Below are positions 4,191 to 17,143 of a stretch of 18,058 nucleotides of DNA, in pieces. Position 1 is the first letter of the stretch. Every line of letters starts with the position of its first letter. The notes below the pieces were generated by a model. That model ran no database searches. It was given only the letters and a program-made list of their open reading frames with translations, and was not told the origin of the DNA. A program made the translations under genes and the position numbers. This DNA comes from a virus (lineage: Duplodnaviria > Heunggongvirae > Uroviricota > Caudoviricetes), in the IMG/VR virus record IMGVR_UViG_2521172733_000017; one strand, written 5' to 3'.

Positions 4191-6077
4191 ATGAGTACCA
4201 CAACACGAAAATTTAAAACCGTTATCACCGATACGGGTGCAAAAAAATTAGCTCAGGCAGCCGCGCCAGATGGTAAGCCTGTCCGCCTGACTCATATGGC
4301 CGTGGGCGACGGTGGCGGCACGTTGCCCACACCAGACAGTAAGCAGACCCGTCTGGTGCATGAGGTGTGGCGACACACTGTTAATCGCGTCATCCTGGAC
4401 GCAACACATCAGAACCGCATTATTGCGGAGCTGGTTATTCCTCCTGAAACGGGCGGATTCTGGATCCGGGAAATTGGTGTATTTGATGAGCACGGCGATT
4501 TAATCGCGGCGGGCAATACTGCCGAAAGTTACAAGCCAGCCGTTGCCGAAGGGTCCGGTCGTGCACAAACATTTCGCACCATTCTGACCGTATCCAGCAC
4601 TGCCACCGTGGCGCTTACCGTGGATAACACCATGGTGATGGCCACAGTGGATTACGTGGATGACAAACTGAAAGAGCATGAACAGTCACGACGTCACCCG
4701 GACGCCTCGCTGACCGCAAAAGGCTTTGTTCAACTCAGTAGTGCCACCAACAGCACGTCTGAAACACTGGCCGCGACATCGAAAGCGGTTAAGGCGGTAA
4801 TGGATGAAACGAACAAGAAAGCCCCATTAAACAGCCCGGCACTGACCGGAACGCCAACAACGCCAACTGCGCGACAGGGAACGAATAATACCCAAATCGC
4901 AAGCACGGCTTTCGTTATGGCTGCGATTGCCGCCCTTGTAGATTCGTCACCTGACGCACTGAATACGCTGAACGAGTTAGCGGCGGCGCTGGGAAACGAC
5001 CCGAATTTTGCGACCACCATGACTAACGCGCTTGCGGGTAAGCAACCGAAAGATGCCACCCTGACGGCGCTGGCCGGGCTTGCTACTGCGGCAGACAAGT
5101 TTCCGTATTTTACGGGGAATGATGTCGCCAGCCTGGCAACCCTGACAAAAGTCGGGCGGGATATTCTTGCGAAATCGACCGTTGCTGCCGTTATCGAATA
5201 CCTCGGTTTACAGGAAATGGTAAACAGGGCTGGTAACGCCGTGCAAAAAAATGGCGATACTTTGTCCGGTGGGCTTACTTTTGAAAATGACTCAATCCTT
5301 GCCTGGATTCGAAATACTGACTGGGCGAAGATTGGATTTAAAAATGATGCCGATGGTGACACTGATTCATACATGTGGTTTGAAACAGGCGACAACGGCA
5401 ATGAATATTTCAAATGGAGAAGCAAACAAAGCACCACAACAAAAGACCTGATGACGCTGAAATGGGATGCGCTAAATATTCTTGTTAATGCCGTCATTAA
5501 TGGCAGCCTTGGAGTTGGTACGACGAATGCGTTAGGTGGTAGCTCTATTGTTCTTGGTGATAATGATACCGGATTTAAACAGAATGGAGACGGTATTCTT
5601 GATGTTTATGCTAATAGTCAGCGTGTATTCCGCTTTCAGAATGGAGTGGCTATTGCTTTTAAAAATATTCAGGCTGGGGATGGTAAAAAATTCACGCTAT
5701 CCAGCTCCAACAACTCCACGAAGAACGTAGGGTTTAATTTATGGGGCGCTTCATCAAGACCAACTGTTGCAGAGCTTGGTGATGATTCAGGCTGGCATTT
5801 CTATAGTCAGCGAAATACAGATAACTCGGTGATATTTGCTGTAAACGGTCAGATACAACCCAGCAACTGGGGGAATTTTGATTCACGCTATGTGAGAGAT
5901 GTCAGACTTGGCACGCGTGTTGTTCAAACTATGCAAAGAGGCGTGATGTATGAAAAATCAGGCCATGCAATTACGGGGCTTGGCATTGTCGGCGAAGTTG
6001 ATGGCGATGATCCGGCTGTGTTCAGACCAATACAAAAATACATCAATGGCACATGGTATAACGTTGCACAGGTATAA
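4191..6077 (+). CDS. H: Tail fibre protein H: constant N-terminal part plus currently expressed variable C-terminal part
   Basis: 628 aa; N-terminal region with IAELVIPPETGGFW and the repeated QLSSATNSTSETLAAT motif, and C-terminus YINGTWYNVAQV, resemble P2 gpH as recalled; the gix-like crossover site lies in-frame at 5191-5216. Confidence 0.9.
   Translation: MSTTTRKFKTVITDTGAKKLAQAAAPDGKPVRLTHMAVGDGGGTLPTPDSKQTRLVHEVWRHTVNRVILDATHQNRIIAELVIPPETGGFWIREIGVFDEHGDLIAAGNTAESYKPAVAEGSGRAQTFRTILTVSSTATVALTVDNTMVMATVDYVDDKLKEHEQSRRHPDASLTAKGFVQLSSATNSTSETLAATSKAVKAVMDETNKKAPLNSPALTGTPTTPTARQGTNNTQIASTAFVMAAIAALVDSSPDALNTLNELAAALGNDPNFATTMTNALAGKQPKDATLTALAGLATAADKFPYFTGNDVASLATLTKVGRDILAKSTVAAVIEYLGLQEMVNRAGNAVQKNGDTLSGGLTFENDSILAWIRNTDWAKIGFKNDADGDTDSYMWFETGDNGNEYFKWRSKQSTTTKDLMTLKWDALNILVNAVINGSLGVGTTNALGGSSIVLGDNDTGFKQNGDGILDVYANSQRVFRFQNGVAIAFKNIQAGDGKKFTLSSSNNSTKNVGFNLWGASSRPTVAELGDDSGWHFYSQRNTDNSVIFAVNGQIQPSNWGNFDSRYVRDVRLGTRVVQTMQRGVMYEKSGHAITGLGIVGEVDGDDPAVFRPIQKYINGTWYNVAQV
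5191..5216. repeat. gix/hix-like recombination site (left inverted repeat) TTATCGAATACCTCGGTTTACAGGAA inside H
   Basis: Matches 21 of 26 positions with the reverse complement of the site at 7869-7894; strongly resembles Mu gixL (TTATCCAAAACCTCGGTTTACAGGAA) as recalled. Confidence 0.8.
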
Positions 6078-6080
6078 ATC

Positions 6081-6608
6081 ATGCAGCATTTAAAAAACAT
6101 TACTGCTGGCAATCCTAAAACAAAAGAGCAATATCAGCTAACAAAGAATTTTGATGTTATCTGGTTGTGGTCAGAAGATGGGAAAAACTGGTACGAGGAA
6201 TTAAAGAACTTTCAGGAAGACACAATAAAAATTCTTTATGACGAGAATAATATTATTGTCGCCATCACCAAAGATGCCTCCACGCTTAACCCTGAAGGCT
6301 ATAGCGTCGTTGAAGTTCCTGATATTACAGCTAATCGCCGTGCCGATGATTCAGGTAAGTGGATGTTTAAGGACGGGGCTGTAGTTAAGCGGATTTATAC
6401 GGCAGACGAACAGCAACAACAGGCCAAATCACAAAAGGCCGCATTACTTTCCGAAGCTGAATCAGTTATCCAGCCACTGGAACGCGCTGTCAGGCTGAAC
6501 ATGGCGACGGATGAGGAGCGCGCACGACTGGAGTCATGGGAACGCTACAGCGTTCTGGTCAGCCGTGTGGATACAGCAAATCCCGAATGGCCACAAAAGC
6601 CTGAATAA
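6081..6608 (+). CDS. G: Tail fibre assembly chaperone (gpG / Mu U-like)
   Basis: 175 aa immediately after H; N-terminal 22 residues nearly identical to the oppositely oriented paralogue at 6637-7170, as expected for U/U' chaperone pairs. Confidence 0.85.
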
Positions 6609-6613
6609 AAATT

Positions 6614-6633
6614 AAGGCCCGATAGCGGGCCTT
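6614..6633. terminator. Bidirectional hairpin between the convergent G and G' genes (AAGGCCCG-ATAG-CGGGCCTT)
   Basis: Perfect 8-bp GC-rich stem with a tetraloop, located between the two convergent stop codons (6606-6608 and 6637-6639). Confidence 0.55.
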
Positions 6634-6636
6634 GTC

Positions 6637-7170
6637 TCATTCAGGTTGTTCGGGAAACGTTACTGGCAGGCTGGAAGTGTCTGTAGATTCGACTTTCTGC
6701 GCAAAGAGCATCCACTCTGTTAATTTTTGTTTATTCTCGTCGGAAATGATGCCCAGCCGTAGCTGTGAGTCCCATAGCTGGGTTTTATCCCTGACGAGCT
6801 GTAGCAGGCTTTGCTTTTCATTTTCCGCCTGCTGCCTCTGCTCTTCCTCGGTATAAGTTCGCTTTACCACTACGCCATCTTTGAACATCCATTTACCCGA
6901 AATGTCAGCACGGCGATTTGCTGTAATATCAGGTAATTCAACGACGCTTGCGCCTTCCGGATTAATTGCTGAAACATCCTTTTCAATACAAATAATAACG
7001 CCGTTATGGTCATAGACCATTTTCAAAGTGTCTGGCTGGAAATTCTTTTGTTCCTCATACCAGTTTTTTCCATCATCTGAATAAAGCCATTTGATGTTAA
7101 ATTGCTTTGTTAGCTGGTATTGCTCTTTTGTTTTAGGATTGCCAGCAGTAATGTTTTTTAAGTGCTGCAT
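6637..7170 (-). CDS. Alternative tail fibre assembly chaperone (G' / U'-like), expressed after inversion
   Basis: 177 aa; N-terminus [22 protein letters not shown] shared with G, remainder diverged; lies inside the invertible segment on the opposite strand. Confidence 0.8.
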   Translation of the reverse strand: MQHLKNITAGNPKTKEQYQLTKQFNIKWLYSDDGKNWYEEQKNFQPDTLKMVYDHNGVIICIEKDVSAINPEGASVVELPDITANRRADISGKWMFKDGVVVKRTYTEEEQRQQAENEKQSLLQLVRDKTQLWDSQLRLGIISDENKQKLTEWMLFAQKVESTDTSSLPVTFPEQPE

Positions 7171-7172
7171 AA

Positions 7173-7886
7173 TTAAATACTCCCCGCGTTATACCACGTC
7201 CCATTAATGCAATACTGAATTGGCCTTGCCTGAGTTGTATCAATTAATTCATCACGGTTTCTGTTAACTGAACCCGTAACGACATAACCTGACCTGTCAG
7301 ACCAGCCGGGACCATTCCATGTCTGAACAGATGACAGACCGCCAAGGCGAATACCTGTAATAAACCTTGAGTTACATTCTGCCTGCGTGTATGCACCAAC
7401 ATCTCCCGCAGAGGGTTTGCGGGTCGTGGTGTAAAACTCTGACCAGTCGGCTTCAAAACCATAACCATCACGGGCTGAACGATAAAAAATACCGCCATTT
7501 TTATAATTAATCCGAAACTGAGCTGCAGGACAACTTCCTTCTCCCATATAAAAATGAATAATTAACGTTGATGCACCACTAATAGTTGCGTTATAGGCTC
7601 CGCTACTCCAGTTCCATCCAACTGCTTTATCATTCGCAACGGTGCTTCCTGTTTTCCCTAAGGCAAACGCACCAACATGACTTGCTTTTAATGTGATATC
7701 GGAGGAACCATCAAAAGCCACATTGCTTATTTTCCTGGCAGTTTTTAATTTTGCAGCTGTAGAAGCATTGCCGGATAGTTCACCTGAAAGGCCACCGCTG
7801 AATGTTTGTCGATTAGTCCAGGTATTCGCTGTACTGAGTAACGGTATTTTCTCCCCGCTTGTGCCGAGTTCTCGTAAACCGAGGTT
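7173..7886 (-). CDS. Alternative tail fibre variable C-terminal segment (H' / Sv'-like); no start codon of its own, fused to the H constant region after inversion
   Basis: The - strand frame is open from 7886 to the stop at 7173 and passes through the gix core encoding L-G-L, as H does at gixL; an in-frame TAA lies in the outer half of gixR (7887-7889); C-terminus CINGTWYNAGSI parallels the H C-terminus. The track ORF starts at 7721. Confidence 0.75.
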   Translation of the reverse strand, partial: NLGLRELGTSGEKIPLLSTANTWTNRQTFSGGLSGELSGNASTAAKLKTARKISNVAFDGSSDITLKASHVGAFALGKTGSTVANDKAVGWNWSSGAYNATISGASTLIIHFYMGEGSCPAAQFRINYKNGGIFYRSARDGYGFEADWSEFYTTTRKPSAGDVGAYTQAECNSRFITGIRLGGLSSVQTWNGPGWSDRSGYVVTGSVNRNRDELIDTTQARPIQYCINGTWYNAGSI

Positions 7887-7894
7887 TTAGATAA
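7869..7894. repeat. gix/hix-like recombination site (right inverted repeat) TTCTCGTAAACCGAGGTTTTAGATAA
   Basis: Inverted copy of the 5191-5216 site; resembles Mu gixR (TTCCTGTAAACCGAGGTTTTGGATAATGG) including the trailing ATGG; lies 55 bp upstream of the invertase start. Confidence 0.8.
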
Positions 7895-7948
7895 TGGCCG
7901 TTTCTGACCTGCATGGCATGATTTACGCTTTTGGACGGGAGATTCAGC

Positions 7949-8536
7949 GTGCTGATTGGCTATGTAAGGGTATCAACAAATGACCAGAATACAGACCTGC
8001 AACGAAACGCTCTTGTTTGTGCAGGATGTGAACAAATATTTGAAGATAAATTAAGCGGGACAAAGACAGACCGACCGGGATTAAAACGCGCTTTAAAGCG
8101 CCTTCAAAAAGGTGACACGCTGGTTGTCTGGAAACTGGATCGCCTCGGGCGAAGCATGAAACATCTGATTTCTCTCGTCGGGGAACTACGGGAGCGAGGG
8201 ATTAATTTTCGCAGTCTGACCGACAGCATAGATACATCTTCTCCAATGGGGCGTTTTTTCTTCCACGTGATGGGTGCCCTGGCTGAAATGGAACGTGAAT
8301 TAATTGTTGAACGTACACTGGCCGGACTGGCGGCAGCGCGTGCACGGGGGCGCACAGGCGGACGTCGACCGAAGCTGACAAAAGAACAGCATGAGCAAAT
8401 AGCAAGGCTGATCAAAAACGGGCACGACAGAAAACAACTGGCAATAATTTACGGCATTGGTATATCGACGATTTATCGTTACCACCCCGCAGGAGAATCA
8501 AGCGGAACAATAGAGAAGAGTCAGGAAACAAAATAA
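7949..8536 (+). CDS. Serine-recombinase DNA invertase (Gin/Pin/Cin/Hin family)
   Basis: From GTG 7949 the product begins MLIGYVRVSTNDQNTDLQRNAL... with the catalytic-serine motif YVRVSTNDQ and VVWKLDRLGRS, close to Mu Gin and e14 Pin as recalled; C-terminal helix-turn-helix region. The track's TTG start at 7931 adds 6 unlikely residues. Confidence 0.9.
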   Translation: MLIGYVRVSTNDQNTDLQRNALVCAGCEQIFEDKLSGTKTDRPGLKRALKRLQKGDTLVVWKLDRLGRSMKHLISLVGELRERGINFRSLTDSIDTSSPMGRFFFHVMGALAEMERELIVERTLAGLAAARARGRTGGRRPKLTKEQHEQIARLIKNGHDRKQLAIIYGIGISTIYRYHPAGESSGTIEKSQETK

Positions 8537-9072: not shown

Positions 9073-11916
9073 TCAATCTTTATCGTAAAAACTGCCACGT
9101 CCGGCACGGGCGCGCCGTTCCATCTCTGCCCTGACCATTTCACCGACCAGTTTCGCCAGTTCGCGGGGGTTCTGCGTAACAACGTTATGCAGATGGACAT
9201 GAATTTCACCACCAAATCCGGAGGCAACAGGCTCCCGGTTACGGGAAGTTACAGGAACTGATGCCACTGGCGATCGTATGGCCTCCGCCACCGGGCGGGA
9301 GCTGGCCGCAACAACAGGGACCAGCGCCGGAGGCAGCGGAGCCGGGACCACGGGTGTGATATTAATTGCGGGGGCAGGCTTACTGACCTGCGCAATCTTC
9401 CGCTCCTGCCACTCCCCACGAACAGCAAGTGCGCGGGGCAGGTTCTTAAAGACAATATCGCCGGGGCCAATGCGTTTTTTCGTCTCATCAACCAGCTTAC
9501 CTGTGTTATCAGCAATTTTGCTGAGTCTGCGTAGCGTCCCGGTATTGCTGTCTGTGAGCGGTTTGTTGTCTTTGGGTTTATCACCTCCGGTGCCATTGCC
9601 ATTTTCCACAGGCTTCGGCGGATTGATTTTCGCCAGGTCCCCCTGAAGCAAGGCAACCTTGTCCTGAAGAATGGCCGCACGCTGTGCGTCTTCGATTTTC
9701 TTGCGCGCCCTTTCCGCTTCATCCGGAAGGACGCCAAGTTTTTCAAGTATCCACGCCAGCGTATCCAGCAGCATTTTTGCAGGTGTCAGAACAAGTTGTA
9801 ACGCACCGCCAAGAACGTTACCGAATATCTCGCCAGCACTGGTACATTTATCCAGCGTTTCCTTGCTGGACTCCATCGGTGACAGCAGCGATTTAAACCA
9901 GTTAAACACCTGGCTGATCCCGCTTCCGATTGCGTCAAAAACAGGACCAAACCGTTCAAAGGTTTCGCGCAACGGGGTCAGCCTTTCCATAATTCCGCTG
10001 AACACCCCGACAAAAAATGCCCTGATGGGATCCCAATGTTTCCAGATAAGAATGGCAGCTCCGGCAAGCGCAGCCACGATAAGACCAACCGGACTGAACA
10101 GCGCCCCGATAGCACCTCCCAGCAAAGAAACGGAACCCGTCACCATTCCCCATAGTGCTGGCAGGAGCCTGACAGCATTCATTGATCCGATCAGGAGGGA
10201 AAAACCAAGACGCAGTTTTGCCAGCGGGCCAGCAAGCACACCAAGAGCAAGCGACAATGAGCCTACGGTTGCAGTCACTGCCAGCAGCGCACCGCCTGCA
10301 ATCAGTAGCTGGCGCGTCAGTACAGGATGGGCCTGCGCCAGTACCGTCACCTTTGAGACCACCCGTGTTAGCCACTGCGTGACAGAACGCAGCGGACCGT
10401 CAACCAGATCACTGATGCGAATACGAAGACCTTCCCATGCGCTGTCGAGATTTTTCAGGTCGCCATCAAGGTTGTCGGCCATAACCTTTGCCGTGCGTTC
10501 AGCCTCACCGCGTGCGCCCTCAAGTTCTTTTCTCAGTTTGGGTAAGGAACCGTCACCCGCCGCATCAACGAGTGCCATAAACGATGTGAAAGCCTCTTCC
10601 CCGGCGATGTCCTTAAAGAAGGATACCCGGTCAACTTCCCCGTATTTGCGGGTAGCTTTATAAAGGTCAGCCAGCAGATCTTCCATCGGGCGCATTTTGC
10701 CCCCGGCATCCGAGACGGACACGCCCAGCTCTTTCAGAGCTTCTGCCGCCGCCTTTGGCGGTGATGCCAGACGAGCCAGGCTGGCACGCATTGCCGTCCC
10801 GGCATCACTCCCTCTGATGCCCATATTCGCCAGCACGCCCGCCATCGCTGCGGCCTGCTCCAGCGATATTCCCAGCTTACCCGCCACCGGACCTGCATAT
10901 TTCATGGTTTCGCCCAGTGCGCGAAGGTCAGTGTTGGTACGGGTAAACGCTGCGGTGAGTGTGTCACCGACCCGGTCCATCTGGTCAGCAGAAAGGCCGA
11001 ACTGCGTCAGGATATTTGAGCCAATATCTGCCGTCTCGCCGAGATCCATACCGCCAGCCGTTGCCATGCTCAGCACGCCGGGAAGCGCAGCCTGAATGGC
11101 CTGCGGAGTGAAGCCAGCCATTGCAAGAAATGCCTGTCCACTGGCGGCATCGCCTGCGGTGAACTGCGTTTCAGAGCCCAGTTTTAACGCCTGCTCACGC
11201 AGCGCCTTAAACTGCGGGCTGTTCTGGTCGATTCGCGTCAGTGCCTGAACGCGGGACATCTCTTTGCCGAACCCGATCGCAGGCTGCAAAAAACGCCCGG
11301 CAGCATAGCCGCCCGCCGCTGCCGCACCAATTGCCAGTGCACCACCTGTTTTCAGTTTTCCCGCTGTTTCCTGCGCGCGCGAATACCGCTCACGCGCCCG
11401 CGTTACACGCGCAAGCGCCTGCCGTTCGCGTTCAAGCTGGTTGTTGTACTGTTCGGTGCGTCTGATGGCCTGCTGGATGGTGTTATCGCTGCCTGTCAGG
11501 GAAATGCCGTGGCGTTTCAGCTCTCCGCCAAGCTCCCGCATTTTCTGAATTTCCCGTGTGCGCGATTCATTCAGGCGTTCAAGCCGGGTGCTTAACTGCT
11601 GCATCAGCTTTTGTTGTTTTTCGCTGAGCACTGTACCCGTGCGTTGTAACTGATTAAGGGCGTTAAGCTGGCGTCGTGCTTTCACGATACCCGCATCCGC
11701 TTTACTGACAGCGTCGCGGGCGCGCTCAAATGAACGCGCCTGACGCTCGAGATTTTTGATCGCCCCCTGCGTTCGCTGGATGGAGTCACCAAACTGCCCC
11801 ATCAGGCGGCGGGCGTTTTCGGCAGGCCGGGTCAGCCTGTCAACGGCGCTGAAAGCGACCCGGATGTCAAGAGTCTTCATTATCTGCATTCCCGCTGCGA
11901 AGTGCCGCCCGCTCAC
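9073..11916 (-). CDS. T: Tail tape measure protein (gpT)
   Basis: 947 aa; coiled-coil-rich N-terminal region, central hydrophobic and Gly/Ala-rich segment, located after E/E' and before U. Confidence 0.85.
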   Translation of the reverse strand: MSGRHFAAGMQIMKTLDIRVAFSAVDRLTRPAENARRLMGQFGDSIQRTQGAIKNLERQARSFERARDAVSKADAGIVKARRQLNALNQLQRTGTVLSEKQQKLMQQLSTRLERLNESRTREIQKMRELGGELKRHGISLTGSDNTIQQAIRRTEQYNNQLERERQALARVTRARERYSRAQETAGKLKTGGALAIGAAAAGGYAAGRFLQPAIGFGKEMSRVQALTRIDQNSPQFKALREQALKLGSETQFTAGDAASGQAFLAMAGFTPQAIQAALPGVLSMATAGGMDLGETADIGSNILTQFGLSADQMDRVGDTLTAAFTRTNTDLRALGETMKYAGPVAGKLGISLEQAAAMAGVLANMGIRGSDAGTAMRASLARLASPPKAAAEALKELGVSVSDAGGKMRPMEDLLADLYKATRKYGEVDRVSFFKDIAGEEAFTSFMALVDAAGDGSLPKLRKELEGARGEAERTAKVMADNLDGDLKNLDSAWEGLRIRISDLVDGPLRSVTQWLTRVVSKVTVLAQAHPVLTRQLLIAGGALLAVTATVGSLSLALGVLAGPLAKLRLGFSLLIGSMNAVRLLPALWGMVTGSVSLLGGAIGALFSPVGLIVAALAGAAILIWKHWDPIRAFFVGVFSGIMERLTPLRETFERFGPVFDAIGSGISQVFNWFKSLLSPMESSKETLDKCTSAGEIFGNVLGGALQLVLTPAKMLLDTLAWILEKLGVLPDEAERARKKIEDAQRAAILQDKVALLQGDLAKINPPKPVENGNGTGGDKPKDNKPLTDSNTGTLRRLSKIADNTGKLVDETKKRIGPGDIVFKNLPRALAVRGEWQERKIAQVSKPAPAINITPVVPAPLPPALVPVVAASSRPVAEAIRSPVASVPVTSRNREPVASGFGGEIHVHLHNVVTQNPRELAKLVGEMVRAEMERRARAGRGSFYDKD

Positions 11917-12396
11917 GCCAGCTAACCACTTCGCCGGGCGTCATCATGAAGATTTCGGCGGGCGACCAGTTAAAAATGGCGGCAATATCCGCCACCAGAT
12001 CTTCGATGTGCTCAAAGCACACAACCGTGATCAGGCTTCCGTCGCCTGTTCGTTCTTCCCGCCAGAGTCCGCACCGCTCAAAAAATTTACGGCAACCACA
12101 CATAACTGAATAAAGTCACGGGATGCCATTTTTTTGATCGTCACTTCATCCAGTCGCGGTGATGTCACGCGTGACAGCAGCGTAAACATGGATTCCGCTT
12201 TCAGATTCAGCACATCAGACAGCGACAAATCTCGCAGAGATCCAGCCTGCTCAATAGCTCCGGTGATCTCCACATACGTGATTTTTTCGCCGCCTCGCTC
12301 AATTGGTTGGGTAAGTTTTACGCCACGCTCACTGGTTTCTTTCACAGTGTCAGCAACGACCGTGTTTTCGTTATCGATGTTTTTCGTCTCTTTCAT
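11867..12396 (-). CDS. Tail assembly chaperone E+E' made by programmed -1 ribosomal frameshift at T TTT TTG (+ strand 12079-12085)
   Basis: The -1 frame ORF (11867-12103) overlaps the 3' end of E and the start of T; the slippery heptamer is the one P2 uses for E/E', as I recall; arrangement is conserved in tailed phages. Confidence 0.7.
12031..12396 (-). CDS. E: Tail assembly chaperone E (zero-frame product)
   Basis: 121 aa between the tube gene FII and T; AAGGAG RBS 7 nt upstream of the ATG; contains the T TTT TTG slippery heptamer near its 3' end. Confidence 0.8.
   Translation of the reverse strand: MKETKNIDNENTVVADTVKETSERGVKLTQPIERGGEKITYVEITGAIEQAGSLRDLSLSDVLNLKAESMFTLLSRVTSPRLDEVTIKKMASRDFIQLCVVAVNFLSGADSGGKNEQATEA
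12079..12085 (-). promoter_or_regulatory. Programmed -1 frameshift slippery heptamer T TTT TTG (read on the - strand)
   Basis: Heptamer is in the correct phase (aaT TTT TTG = N F L in the E frame); the -1 frame continues ...VNFFERCGLW... into E'. Confidence 0.65.
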
Positions 12397-12450: not shown

Positions 12451-12963
12451 TCAGCCAAGCCCGAGCGCGGAACGGATGCGATCGGGCACAATGTCCTTGC
12501 CGTCCTTCCGGTAAATGAAGTTCAGCAGGTCAATCTCCCACAACGGGCGATCGTTAACACTCAGCTTGTAGTAGGTGTTTTTAATGGCGTAAGTGTGTGA
12601 TGTGGCTTCGCCCTGTTTGGCTTCCCCCATATCAATTTCCGTCACACGTCCGCGCATTTCGACTTCATACAGATCGCTTTCTGCATCGGTGTAGTATTCA
12701 CCCGCAAAACGCAGCAGCGTGCCGTCAATCGTGCCGCCATACTTAAGGAACAGCTCACGAACTGCCCCCCCCATGACAAAGCTCGCATCAAGCGCGGAGT
12801 CGTCCAGACCGAGATCAATACTTACCGCCCCCATCATGCCGCCCCCCCGGTAGCTGTCGGTTTTGCGCGTCAGCTTAGGCAGAGTGACGGACGTCACCTT
12901 ACCCACTTCGTTTTCACCATCCACAAACAGCGTAAAAAAGCGAAGATGTTTTGGCACAGCCAT
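12451..12963 (-). CDS. FII: Tail tube protein FII
   Basis: 170 aa; motifs SVTLPKLTRK and DLGLDDSAL match P2 gpFII as recalled; start overlaps the FI stop (ATGA). Confidence 0.9.
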   Translation of the reverse strand: MAVPKHLRFFTLFVDGENEVGKVTSVTLPKLTRKTDSYRGGGMMGAVSIDLGLDDSALDASFVMGGAVRELFLKYGGTIDGTLLRFAGEYYTDAESDLYEVEMRGRVTEIDMGEAKQGEATSHTYAIKNTYYKLSVNDRPLWEIDLLNFIYRKDGKDIVPDRIRSALGLG

Positions 12964-14147
12964 CAGGCACCTCCCAGCACCGCAAATGCGGGTTCAAAGT
13001 ATTCATCAGTAAACGTCTGGTAAAGCTCCATGTCTTCCAGTGGCGGAACGGGCGTATATTTGTAGCGAATACGCACACGCCCCTGACGTAAATCCGTGGT
13101 GCTGTTATCCACCACGTCATACCAGCACTCCGCGCCAATCAGTTTCCCGGCAGTAACCAGTGAATCCAGTTTTGCCCTGATGGCACTGATAACATCCTTC
13201 ACGTTCGCAGGTGTCAGTGGACTGTCGATGGTTTCAAACTGCGCTTCCGCAATTGAATCAGCCAGCACCTGTGCGGTTCGGGTATACACCTCAAAGATGT
13301 AGGCGTTCGTTTCCGGTGTGCGGTTGCCCCAGAAGCGGAACCCGTTGCGACGAATAATGGTCGTGATTTCTTTGTTGTTGAGGCTGTTGGCATCACTGTC
13401 TTCGGCCTGTAACGACCAGAACACATGCCTCGACATCCCCAGCACATTTTTAACCGGAACGTTGGACAGTGATTTGTGCCATCCCTGCTCATGGTCAATG
13501 TACGCACGAAGACCGCACGCATAGGCAGGCGCGGGGAACGTTTCGTTTTTGCCACTTTTCGGGTTGTAGGCGATGAAGTCCGGCCATAAGAGCATCACCT
13601 CACGTTCGTTGAATTTCTGGCGGTAGGTAATCGCCTCAGCCATCGTGTTACAGCCGTGACATGTGGCATACACAAACGCGCGCAGTTTACCCGCAATCAC
13701 GCACAGGGATTTTGTTACCGCCTCCGTGTCCAGCTCCGGCGCGGCCAGAATACGCGGACGGTATCCGATGCTTTCATCCTGCTCTGCAACAAGCAGCGCA
13801 TACATCCCCGTATAGCTGCCGTCAGATTCAGAACCACCGATAACCAGTTGATCCTGCGTTTTTCCGTCTTCTTCTTTGTGTTCAGCCACGCGAACGACGA
13901 TCACCTTTGTGCTCACCTGGTCTGCGATGGCCTTAAGCGCACGATAAAGCGTCCCCGTTGTTCCGCATTTTCCCAGCACGTCATTGACGCGGGTCAGCAG
14001 TGTGGGCTTGTTCAGCGGGAACAGCTCCGCGTCCGCATCATCCGCCGTTGCCACGATACCGATAACACTGGAATCAACATCATTAATCGCTGTTACCAGG
14101 TCGGTACTTTCCGTAACACGGGCACCATGAAAACGAGTTTCACTCAT
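12963..14147 (-). CDS. FI: Contractile tail sheath protein FI
   Basis: 394 aa; extensive motif-level match to P2 gpFI as recalled (DADAELFPLNKP, PRILAAPELDT, GKLRAF, WPDF, HEQGWHKSLSNV, IRRNGFRFWGNRT, YTRTAQVLAD, YKYTPVPPLE). Confidence 0.9.
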   Translation of the reverse strand: MSETRFHGARVTESTDLVTAINDVDSSVIGIVATADDADAELFPLNKPTLLTRVNDVLGKCGTTGTLYRALKAIADQVSTKVIVVRVAEHKEEDGKTQDQLVIGGSESDGSYTGMYALLVAEQDESIGYRPRILAAPELDTEAVTKSLCVIAGKLRAFVYATCHGCNTMAEAITYRQKFNEREVMLLWPDFIAYNPKSGKNETFPAPAYACGLRAYIDHEQGWHKSLSNVPVKNVLGMSRHVFWSLQAEDSDANSLNNKEITTIIRRNGFRFWGNRTPETNAYIFEVYTRTAQVLADSIAEAQFETIDSPLTPANVKDVISAIRAKLDSLVTAGKLIGAECWYDVVDNSTTDLRQGRVRIRYKYTPVPPLEDMELYQTFTDEYFEPAFAVLGGA

Positions 14148-14304
14148 AGCTCCAGCCCCTTGTATCCGTTAAATGATTCAGCAACAATCATCACCCACCA
14201 CGCGCGTAATCTCACCCCTGCGCCGTTCTCCCGCCACGGCGACAACAAAAAGCAGTAACCCCTTCCGCACGCACATGCGACCATGCCGCACAGGGAGGGA
14301 ACAG

Positions 14305-15413
14305 ATGACCGACACCACCATGCAATTGCTCAGCCAGGGCACTTACCCCGTGAAAATGCCGGATTTTGATATTCTCGCCGAGGGTAAAACGCTGTCCGGC
14401 GTGGCAGACCGCCTGATGAACCTGTCACTGACCGACAACCGGGGATTTGAGGCGGACCAGCTCACCATCACGCTGGATGATGCGGATGGTCAGTTGCAGC
14501 TACCGCCACGGGGCGCGCGCCTGACGGTTCTCATTGGCTGGAAAGGAGAACCGCTGACAGAAAAAGGCACTTACATTGTTGATGAAATCGCTCACGAAGG
14601 ACCGCCGGACAGGCTGACTGTTTCAGCCAGAAGCGCAGATTTTCGGGATGAATTTAACGTTAAACGTGAGGTGTCCTGGCATGATGTGACCGTTGAGCGC
14701 GTGGTATCTGCCATCGCTCATCGGTACGGTCTGAAACCGCAAATCAGCGAAATGCTGATGGATATCGAAATCGACCACGCCGACCAGACCGAAGAAAGCG
14801 ATATGTCCTTCCTTACGCGCATGGCGGAAATGCTGGGCGCAATCACCACGGTAAAAAGCGGCAATCTGTTATTCATCATGCCAGGTGGTGGCGTGAACGC
14901 ACAGGGCCAGCCGTTGCCCTCGTTCGCCATTACACGCAGCAGCGGCGATCGCCATCAGTTCCGTATTGCTGACCGCGAGGCGTATACGGGGGTACGCGCC
15001 TACTGGCTTGATCTTAATTACGGGAAAAAGAAAAAGTCAGCGTGAAACGCCGTAAACCACCAAAACCCAAAAAGGAGAAAAGCAGCAGCCGTGAAGGTGA
15101 TTATATGGAAGGCGCGGAAGGCAATGTGTTTGTGTTACGCAAGACTTATCAGAACGAGCAGGCAGCAAGACGCGCAGCGGCGGCAAAGTGGCAGCAGCTA
15201 CAACGCGGAGCCGCATCATTCTCCATCACGCTGGCATGTGGTCGTGCAGAACTCTACCCCGAAATGCATGGCACGGTAACAGGATTTAAAAGCGAGATTG
15301 ATAATCAGGACTGGATTATTGCAAAAGCCGAGCACACCATCGATAACAGCGGCTTTACCACGCAGCTTGAGCTTGAGGCAAAAATCTCGGAATGGATAGC
15401 AGAAACAGAGTGA
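14305..15413 (+). pseudogene. D: Tail protein D (P2 gpD, late control D family) split by a frameshift in an A-rich tract (segments 14305-15045 and 15042-15413)
   Basis: N-terminal segment carries LSLTDNRGFEADQL and SWHD motifs of gpD; the C-terminal part continues in the -1 frame (...GAASFSITLACGRAELYPE..., SGFTT) after the Lys-rich linker; frame break at gggaaaaagaaaaag (15022-15036); RBS GGGAGGG before ATG 14305. Confidence 0.75.
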
Positions 15414-15455: not shown

Positions 15456-15716
15456 ATGTTCCGTTGTCCGCTTTGTGGCGCATCTGCCCGTATCCGCACC
15501 AGTCGTCCTGAAAATGATTCAAACACCGTGCGGCAAAAGTATTACCAGTGTAACAACCTGGAATGCGGCGTATGCTTCTCAACACTGGAAGCTTTCCATA
15601 AATTCACATCAAAACACGCCTCCGGCGTTCACTCTTCAGAAGGTATCCCGTGGCATGAGCTGCCAGCTTCACACAGGGGAAACAATCAGATGAGTTTGCC
15701 TTTACCTCAGAATTAA
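15456..15716 (+). CDS. ogr: Ogr/Delta-family zinc-finger late-gene transcription activator
   Basis: 86 aa; MFRCPLCGASARIRTSR...YYQCNNLECGVCF carries the Cys-x2-Cys...Cys-x4-Cys finger and resembles P2 Ogr; AAGGGAGG RBS; positioned after D at the prophage right end as in P2. Confidence 0.85.
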   Translation: MFRCPLCGASARIRTSRPENDSNTVRQKYYQCNNLECGVCFSTLEAFHKFTSKHASGVHSSEGIPWHELPASHRGNNQMSLPLPQN

Positions 15717-17056: not shown

Positions 17057-17143
17057 TGGTACCCGGAGCGGGACTTGAACCCGCACAGCGCGAACGCCGA
17101 GGGATTTTAAATCCCTTGTGTCTACCGATTCCACCATCCGGGC
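17057..17143 (-). tRNA. leuZ: tRNA-Leu (anticodon UAA), 87 nt with long variable arm
   Basis: Reverse complement matches E. coli leuZ as recalled (GCCCGGATGGTGGAATCGGTAGACACAAGGGATTTAAAATCCC...GGGTTCAAGTCCCGCTCCGGGTACCA); encoded CCA end. Confidence 0.9.

Follow-up and report, generated by a model that had tools for sequence, protein, structure and literature searches.

An apparent frame break in gene D, the tail hub gene of a P88-like prophage, best read as a draft-assembly error

Introduction

The tail baseplate hub protein gpD of P2-family phages is encoded by one ORF, whereas the corresponding gene of the prophage described here is read as two, because one A is missing. The window, that is, the whole stretch of 18,058 nucleotides that was analysed (IMG/VR record IMGVR_UViG_2521172733_000017), raises the question of whether gene D is split by design and expressed through ribosomal frameshifting or reinitiation, broken by a real deletion, or intact in the bacterium and misread in a draft assembly.

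Genomic context of gene D

The window represents the late region of a prophage of the P88-like type (Xuanwuvirus, Peduoviridae, P2-family), which is integrated at tRNA-Leu and adjoins tRNA-Cys, tRNA-Gly and pgsA. D is flanked by the tail sheath operon and ogr in P88-like phages and also in the window, and the order of sheath, D and ogr is equal to that of P88 and P88_4B11. The tail sheath gene FI (12963..14147, minus strand) is divergent from D, the normal arrangement in P88-like phages (Xuanwuvirus). The gene of the ogr/Delta late-gene activator (15456..15716, plus strand), recognised by its annotation and an NCBIfam match, follows D as in P2-type phages. An inversion was considered as the origin of the minus-strand FI-to-U tail operon beside a plus-strand D, and was rejected, this being the usual layout of P88-like phages. 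The P2 late-promoter dyad TGT-N12-ACA was not found in the FI/D intergenic region, and its count over the whole window was at chance level.

Several other features of the prophage were observed. Positions 1-319 of the window are the 3' end of an IS2 element, with the C-terminus of TnpB (NF006918, E = 1e-58) and the terminal repeat ...GGGGCAAATCCA. This IS2 interrupts a DUF6645 gene that is uninterrupted in the finished genome of strain 15A. The region 6081-8536 looks like an invertible tail-fibre cassette. It contains a tail-fibre assembly gene on the plus strand (6081-6608), a second tail-fibre assembly gene and a fibre C-terminus inverted on the minus strand (6637-7170 and 7173-7721), and a gene for a serine recombinase/invertase (7931-8536); identity between the inverted segments is about 76%. 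In a Logan contig (SRR124125_136), beyond the equivalent of window position 17111 inside tRNA-Leu (17057-17143), D and ogr run through the tRNA-Leu core into a phage integrase and early genes. The junction would be of attP type or that of a tandem prophage, and suggests that the DEC15A culture contained phage DNA that was excised or duplicated.

Gene D and its product

The true start of gpD is the ATG at 14305, which is preceded at a distance of 5 nt by the Shine-Dalgarno sequence GGGAGGG (14293..14299, plus strand) and at whose equivalent the annotations of homologues begin; the mechanical ORF starts at 14173. Counted from 14305, the N-terminal fragment has 246 aa, compared to 290 aa in the mechanical ORF. 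By translation, this fragment (14305..15045, plus strand) ends in KKKKSA* and covers positions 48-207 of the 305 positions of PF05954, and the E. coli DEC15A and DEC15B drafts include exactly this product. The C-terminal part lies in the -1 frame (15042..15413, plus strand) according to the ORF list. It would have 123 aa if begun at the GTG that overlaps the TGA, covers positions 218-304 of 305, and appears as 'ybl52 protein' in the DEC15 drafts.

Intact gpD has 369 aa, and the intact allele reaches 63.6 bits against PF05954 (Phage_GPD), for which the gathering cut-off is 30.1. The two fragments in the window score 29.7 and 28.9 bits, each just below the cut-off, and together they cover one domain model (48-207 + 218-304). 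The reconstructed 369-aa protein matches the P2-family gpD hub and its nearest structure, the R2 pyocin hub (PDB 6U5H, chain C; 6U5H_C), with E = 1.6e-41 over residues 18-356. The truncated protein of 246 aa has one third of the PF05954 hub fold missing. The break falls in a poorly conserved Lys-rich stretch (residues ~241-268), which the R2 pyocin hub does not have. The stretch amounts to 16 residues inserted relative to that hub, and 9 nt within it are deleted in P88.

In many RefSeq E. coli genomes, automatic annotation starts D internally and gives a 'VgrG/Pvc8 family' protein of 266 aa (742-1542 of loci L001 and L002, equal to window 14614-15413). The same annotations add a 93-nt antisense pseudogene, and the 369-aa D ORF with its strong Shine-Dalgarno sequence is open there.

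Position of the break

The zero-frame codons of gpD at the break read GGG (15022) AAA AAG AAA AAG TCA GCG TGA (15043-15045), giving ...LNYGKKKKSA*. The premature TGA (15043..15045, plus strand), which comes into frame through the missing A, was seen both in the sequence and in its translation. A GTG at 15042 overlaps this stop codon (GTGA). The -1 frame across the break reads ...VSVKRRKPPKPKKEK... and is open to 15413, as seen in the ORF list and by translation. The stop and the -1-frame continuation described by the initial annotation were thus confirmed. Since the break is fixed in the sequence, a chance test is inapplicable to it.

The tract on the plus strand consists of a first A5 run (15025..15029) and a second run (15031..15035), and it contains two in-frame A_AAG tetramers (15027-15030 and 15033-15036), each inside G_AAA_AAG. 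The initial annotation placed the lost A in the first run and proposed an alignment of homologues to locate the indel. This alignment was made, and it mapped the indel to the second run instead. The first run is of equal length in all homologues, both in the alignment and in the locus census, while the second is A5 here and A6 in intact homologues, as seen in the alignments and in a regex census of loci. All 5 intact homologues aligned, and every intact locus fetched later, read GGG-A5-G-A6-GTC. The missing base is placed by these alignments in the second A run, because the relatives read A5-G-A6 and the window A5-G-A5. The change from A6 to A5 is a 1-nt contraction in the longest homopolymer of gpD. 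The expectation that restoring one A would give an uninterrupted protein of about 370 aa was right as to length, the intact protein having 369 aa, but not as to sequence, since restoration in the first run gives GKKEKVSV and the natural protein has GKKKKVSV.

Distribution of the break among relatives

A break conserved in homologues would favour programmed frameshifting, a comparison that was already suggested in the initial annotation. The comparison was carried out, and the homologues do not share the break, which argues against programming. A 44-mer containing A5, which can seed on the A5 allele alone, was searched against 5,426 complete E. coli genomes, about 1,392 of which carry gene D. 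It was found in 2 genomes (EC04 and KSC9), so that A5 makes up 0.14% among the finished E. coli genomes having gene D. Both D genes are annotated as 'frameshifted', and that of KSC9 has three further A-run deletions inside D. A 91-mer containing A6 was present exactly in 105 genomes. In IMG/VR, the A5 pattern was found in 6 contigs, compared to at least 120 with the A6 pattern. A single D ORF of 366-369 aa exists in all 5 isolated P88-like phages checked (P88, P88_4B11, Shae_phiSM, PhiR44_2 and Chuche). It can be seen that the gpD break is not conserved and that the split is rare and scattered.

A5 also occurs in otherwise clean assemblies with other prophage backgrounds, namely EC04, the recent runs SRR30896288, SRR15950147 and SRR34412144, and IMGVR 2529292922. 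The A tract of D may really contract in some lineages now and then, and this would be ordinary prophage decay. Additionally, a contig from another prophage lineage (Logan SRR24761102) shows a contraction of G5 to G4 at the equivalent of window 14988-14992, 43 nt upstream of the A tract. It gives the same split into 246 + 123 aa and was found in several samples.

Other assemblies of the DEC15 clone

The window prophage belongs to DEC15, a clone of E. coli O111:H21. Records of proteins identical to the 246-aa and 123-aa products come from the DEC15A, DEC15B and DEC15E drafts (AIHO, AIHP and AIHS, an accession block of the 2012 DECA collection) and from two early sequencing runs. A5 is read in 4 of the 5 DEC15 drafts and also in an independent reassembly of a raw run; the DEC15C draft reads A6. 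In the finished genome of the O111:H21 strain 15A (CP077477), all three copies of D have A6. Comparison of the window to CP077477 over 17.7 kb gave three differences, one SNP, G5/G4 in gene H and A5/A6 in D, the latter two being differences in homopolymer length. Over 5-7 kb, A6 is the only difference from the window in the DEC15C draft, in a SPAdes assembly (ERZ21878767) and in GCA_007173175. More than 20 assemblies with an identical prophage read A6, and the intact D allele with the same residues is present on 152 contigs.

The finished genome has peculiarities of its own. Tail fibre gene H (4191-6077) has G5 at 5865-5869 in the window, where its 628-aa ORF is intact. In CP077477 it has G4 and is annotated as frameshifted, and therefore the finished 15A genome contains homopolymer errors as well. 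In NZ_CP077477.1 (1-22000 and 5166823-5207197; loci L006, L013 and L014), the block recombinase-U-T-E-tube-sheath-D-ogr-hok-tRNAs-pgsA exists in three copies of alternating orientation, and in two of them pgsA is fused to a truncated replication endonuclease gene. This triplication results from either mis-assembly or palindromic amplification.

A comparison of the DEC15 drafts, excluding a poor contig end of DEC15B, indicates that every indel among them is a 1-nt contraction of a homopolymer of at least 5. In DEC15E, T6 of uvrY is read as T5. In DEC15C, uvrC has T6 to T5 and an intergenic run A7 to A6. The tail tube gene of DEC15A has C7 to C6, and DEC15B has one-base contractions in the E/E' slippery run (T6), in a T5 run and in a C5 run. 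All these contractions, other than the A5 of D, are private to one draft, and they disrupt the conserved genes uvrY and uvrC and that of the tail tube. Real lesions of uvrY and uvrC, each confined to one member of the clone, are implausible, and the pattern is characteristic of flow-based sequencing. In a sister E. coli project of the same centre and year, 454 Titanium and the Celera assembler were used (PMC3491183), which is indirect evidence as to the platform of the DEC15 runs. Among the IMG/VR matches listed, early IMG identifiers were found for 6 of 6 A5 contigs and 14 of 80 A6 contigs (Fisher p = 8e-5, with a cut chosen post hoc).

Frameshifting and split-gene readings

Programmed -1 frameshifting of the dnaX type would turn the two-frame layout into a functional design, in which slippage on A_AAG makes full-length D at a set ratio. 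In its favour, A_AAG occurs twice in frame, a -1 slip at 15034-15036 (A_AAG 15033-15036) recreates the exact wild-type 369-aa protein, and of the E. coli tRNAs, tRNA-Lys is the most prone to shifting (PMC4066793). E. coli dnaX shares the A_AAG tetramer, the decoding by tRNA-Lys and the -1 direction with the gpD site. The dnaX heptamer is A_AAA_AAG, with a Shine-Dalgarno-like element upstream and a hairpin downstream, whereas the gpD site has G in first place and no stimulatory hairpin. No canonical X_XXY_YYZ heptamer (A_AAA_AAG) exists in the zero frame of D, and G_AAA_AAG is found twice instead. Since the heptamer starts with G, only the A-site tRNA-Lys could re-pair cognately, and not the P-site tRNA. 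The downstream segment 15037-15110 (74 nt) folds at -9 kcal/mol, no better than shuffled sequences, which average -9.7 (z = +0.30). Upstream of the second A_AAG, inspection by eye revealed only GGG/GGGA at 15022-15025, 8-11 nt away, and no GGAGG-like element. With G_AAA_AAG in place of A_AAA_AAG and a downstream structure at the level of shuffles, the dnaX-type slippery motif of the initial annotation is not borne out.

Nor does A_AAG at 15033-15036 qualify as the efficient slip site that it had been taken for, because the bare tetramer is close to background in E. coli. Tetramers without a stimulator shift at 0.147% compared to a background of 0.112%, and A_AAG reaches 5.6% only with the IS3 pseudoknot (PMC4066793). 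The suggestion that some full-length D could arise by frameshifting holds as far as the exact product of the slip is concerned, but the event would be expected for about 1 ribosome in 1,000. Moreover, dnaX makes a second product by its shift, whereas slippage in gpD would rescue a broken gene whose layout is not conserved. A single ORF is found in more than 99% of homologues and in all isolated phages checked, and the 246-aa product, with its incomplete hub fold, also speaks against programming. As an explanation of the layout, programmed frameshifting is extremely improbable.

A genuine programmed -1 site of the P2 type, that of E/E+E', exists in the same window. This site, T_TTT_TTG, lies in the zero frame at 12085-12079 of the minus strand and leads to a 176-aa E+E' fusion of the P2-type tail chaperones E (12031-12396, minus strand) and E' (about 11866-12021, minus strand). 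The canonical heptamer of P2 is present and intact here, whereas gpD lacks a canonical heptamer, and relatives do not show its two-frame arrangement.

A functional split gene would be another kind of design. Ribosomes would stop at the TGA and start again at the GTG overlapping it, and the two fragments, made separately, would come together across the Lys-rich loop to form a working hub. The overlap of GTG 15042 with TGA 15043-15045 is consistent with this, as is the location of the break in the poorly conserved Lys-rich insertion, where P88 has its 9-nt deletion. Against it, evolutionary support is lacking for a split so rare and scattered, a Shine-Dalgarno sequence is absent upstream of the GTG, and the two fragments, each just below the Pfam cut-off, form one domain model. 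The split-gene reading is hardly credible. Transcriptional slippage on A5 was set aside as well, the run being too short for E. coli RNA polymerase, whose slippage requires runs of about 8-9 or more.

Sequencing artefact or real deletion

The position of the indel, the rarity of A5, the intact copies in near-identical genomes and the homopolymer-contraction profile of the drafts were observed directly. They fit the explanation preferred by the initial annotation, a 1-nt homopolymer deletion or sequencing error. Of these two, an artefact is the probable one: we infer that the reads rather than the DNA of the 2012 draft are at fault. The real D gene would then be intact, reading GGG AAA AAG AAA AAA GTC and encoding the 369-aa tail baseplate hub. 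The 2012 draft assembly would have lost one A of the A6 run through a homopolymer under-call, and the under-call would have produced the apparent stop at 15043-15045 and the apparent -1 continuation. The case resembles 454-type under-calls in the loss of 1 nt from a run of 5 or more, in the sibling contractions in conserved genes of the same drafts, and in the longer run obtained when the same strain or clone is resequenced. It differs from them in that one site is hit in 4 of 5 drafts, and the platform is taken by analogy. Random error does not predict an A5 common to 4 of 5 drafts, and therefore the artefact reading needs a site-specific bias. The occurrence of A5 in clean assemblies of other prophage backgrounds also counts against an artefact, as do the homopolymer errors and the odd triplicated structure of the 15A reference.

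The same observations can be read as evidence of a real deletion, in which replication slippage contracted A6 to A5 in the resident prophage. D would be a pseudogene, the prophage could not form tails, and full-length hub would arise only through background -1 slippage at A_AAG or through reversion. The A5 of the four drafts and of the reassembled raw run, its recurrence in clean assemblies of unrelated prophage backgrounds, the neighbouring G5-to-G4 frameshift in another lineage and the IS2 insertion that the window prophage already has all favour this reading. It is opposed by the A6 of the finished 15A genome (three copies), of the DEC15C draft and of the more than 20 assemblies with an identical prophage, by the contractions of uvrY and uvrC in the same drafts, and by the 0.14% share of A5 in finished genomes with gene D. 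A real deletion is thus possible but unlikely. A more far-reaching version would regard the A5-G-A6 tract as a real and recurrent contraction hot spot by which resident P88-like prophages switch off tail-hub synthesis in a reversible manner. It is left standing because A5 arises independently in several clean assemblies of different prophage lineages, and its probability is very low. If it were true, A5 lysogens would be silenced for virions, with a trace of wild-type hub made via tRNA-Lys -1 slippage at A_AAG, and reversion would occur by re-expansion.

Biological meaning

The break in gpD is best read as a draft-assembly error, and otherwise it is at most an ordinary prophage pseudogene. Its biological weight is small, gpD being a well-known tail hub protein. 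The locus calls for caution, as an A tract of Lys codons with an apparent frame change can mimic a recoding site. The real programmed frameshift of E/E' in the same window serves as a comparison, and a census of relatives together with resequenced versions of the same strain resolves such cases fast.
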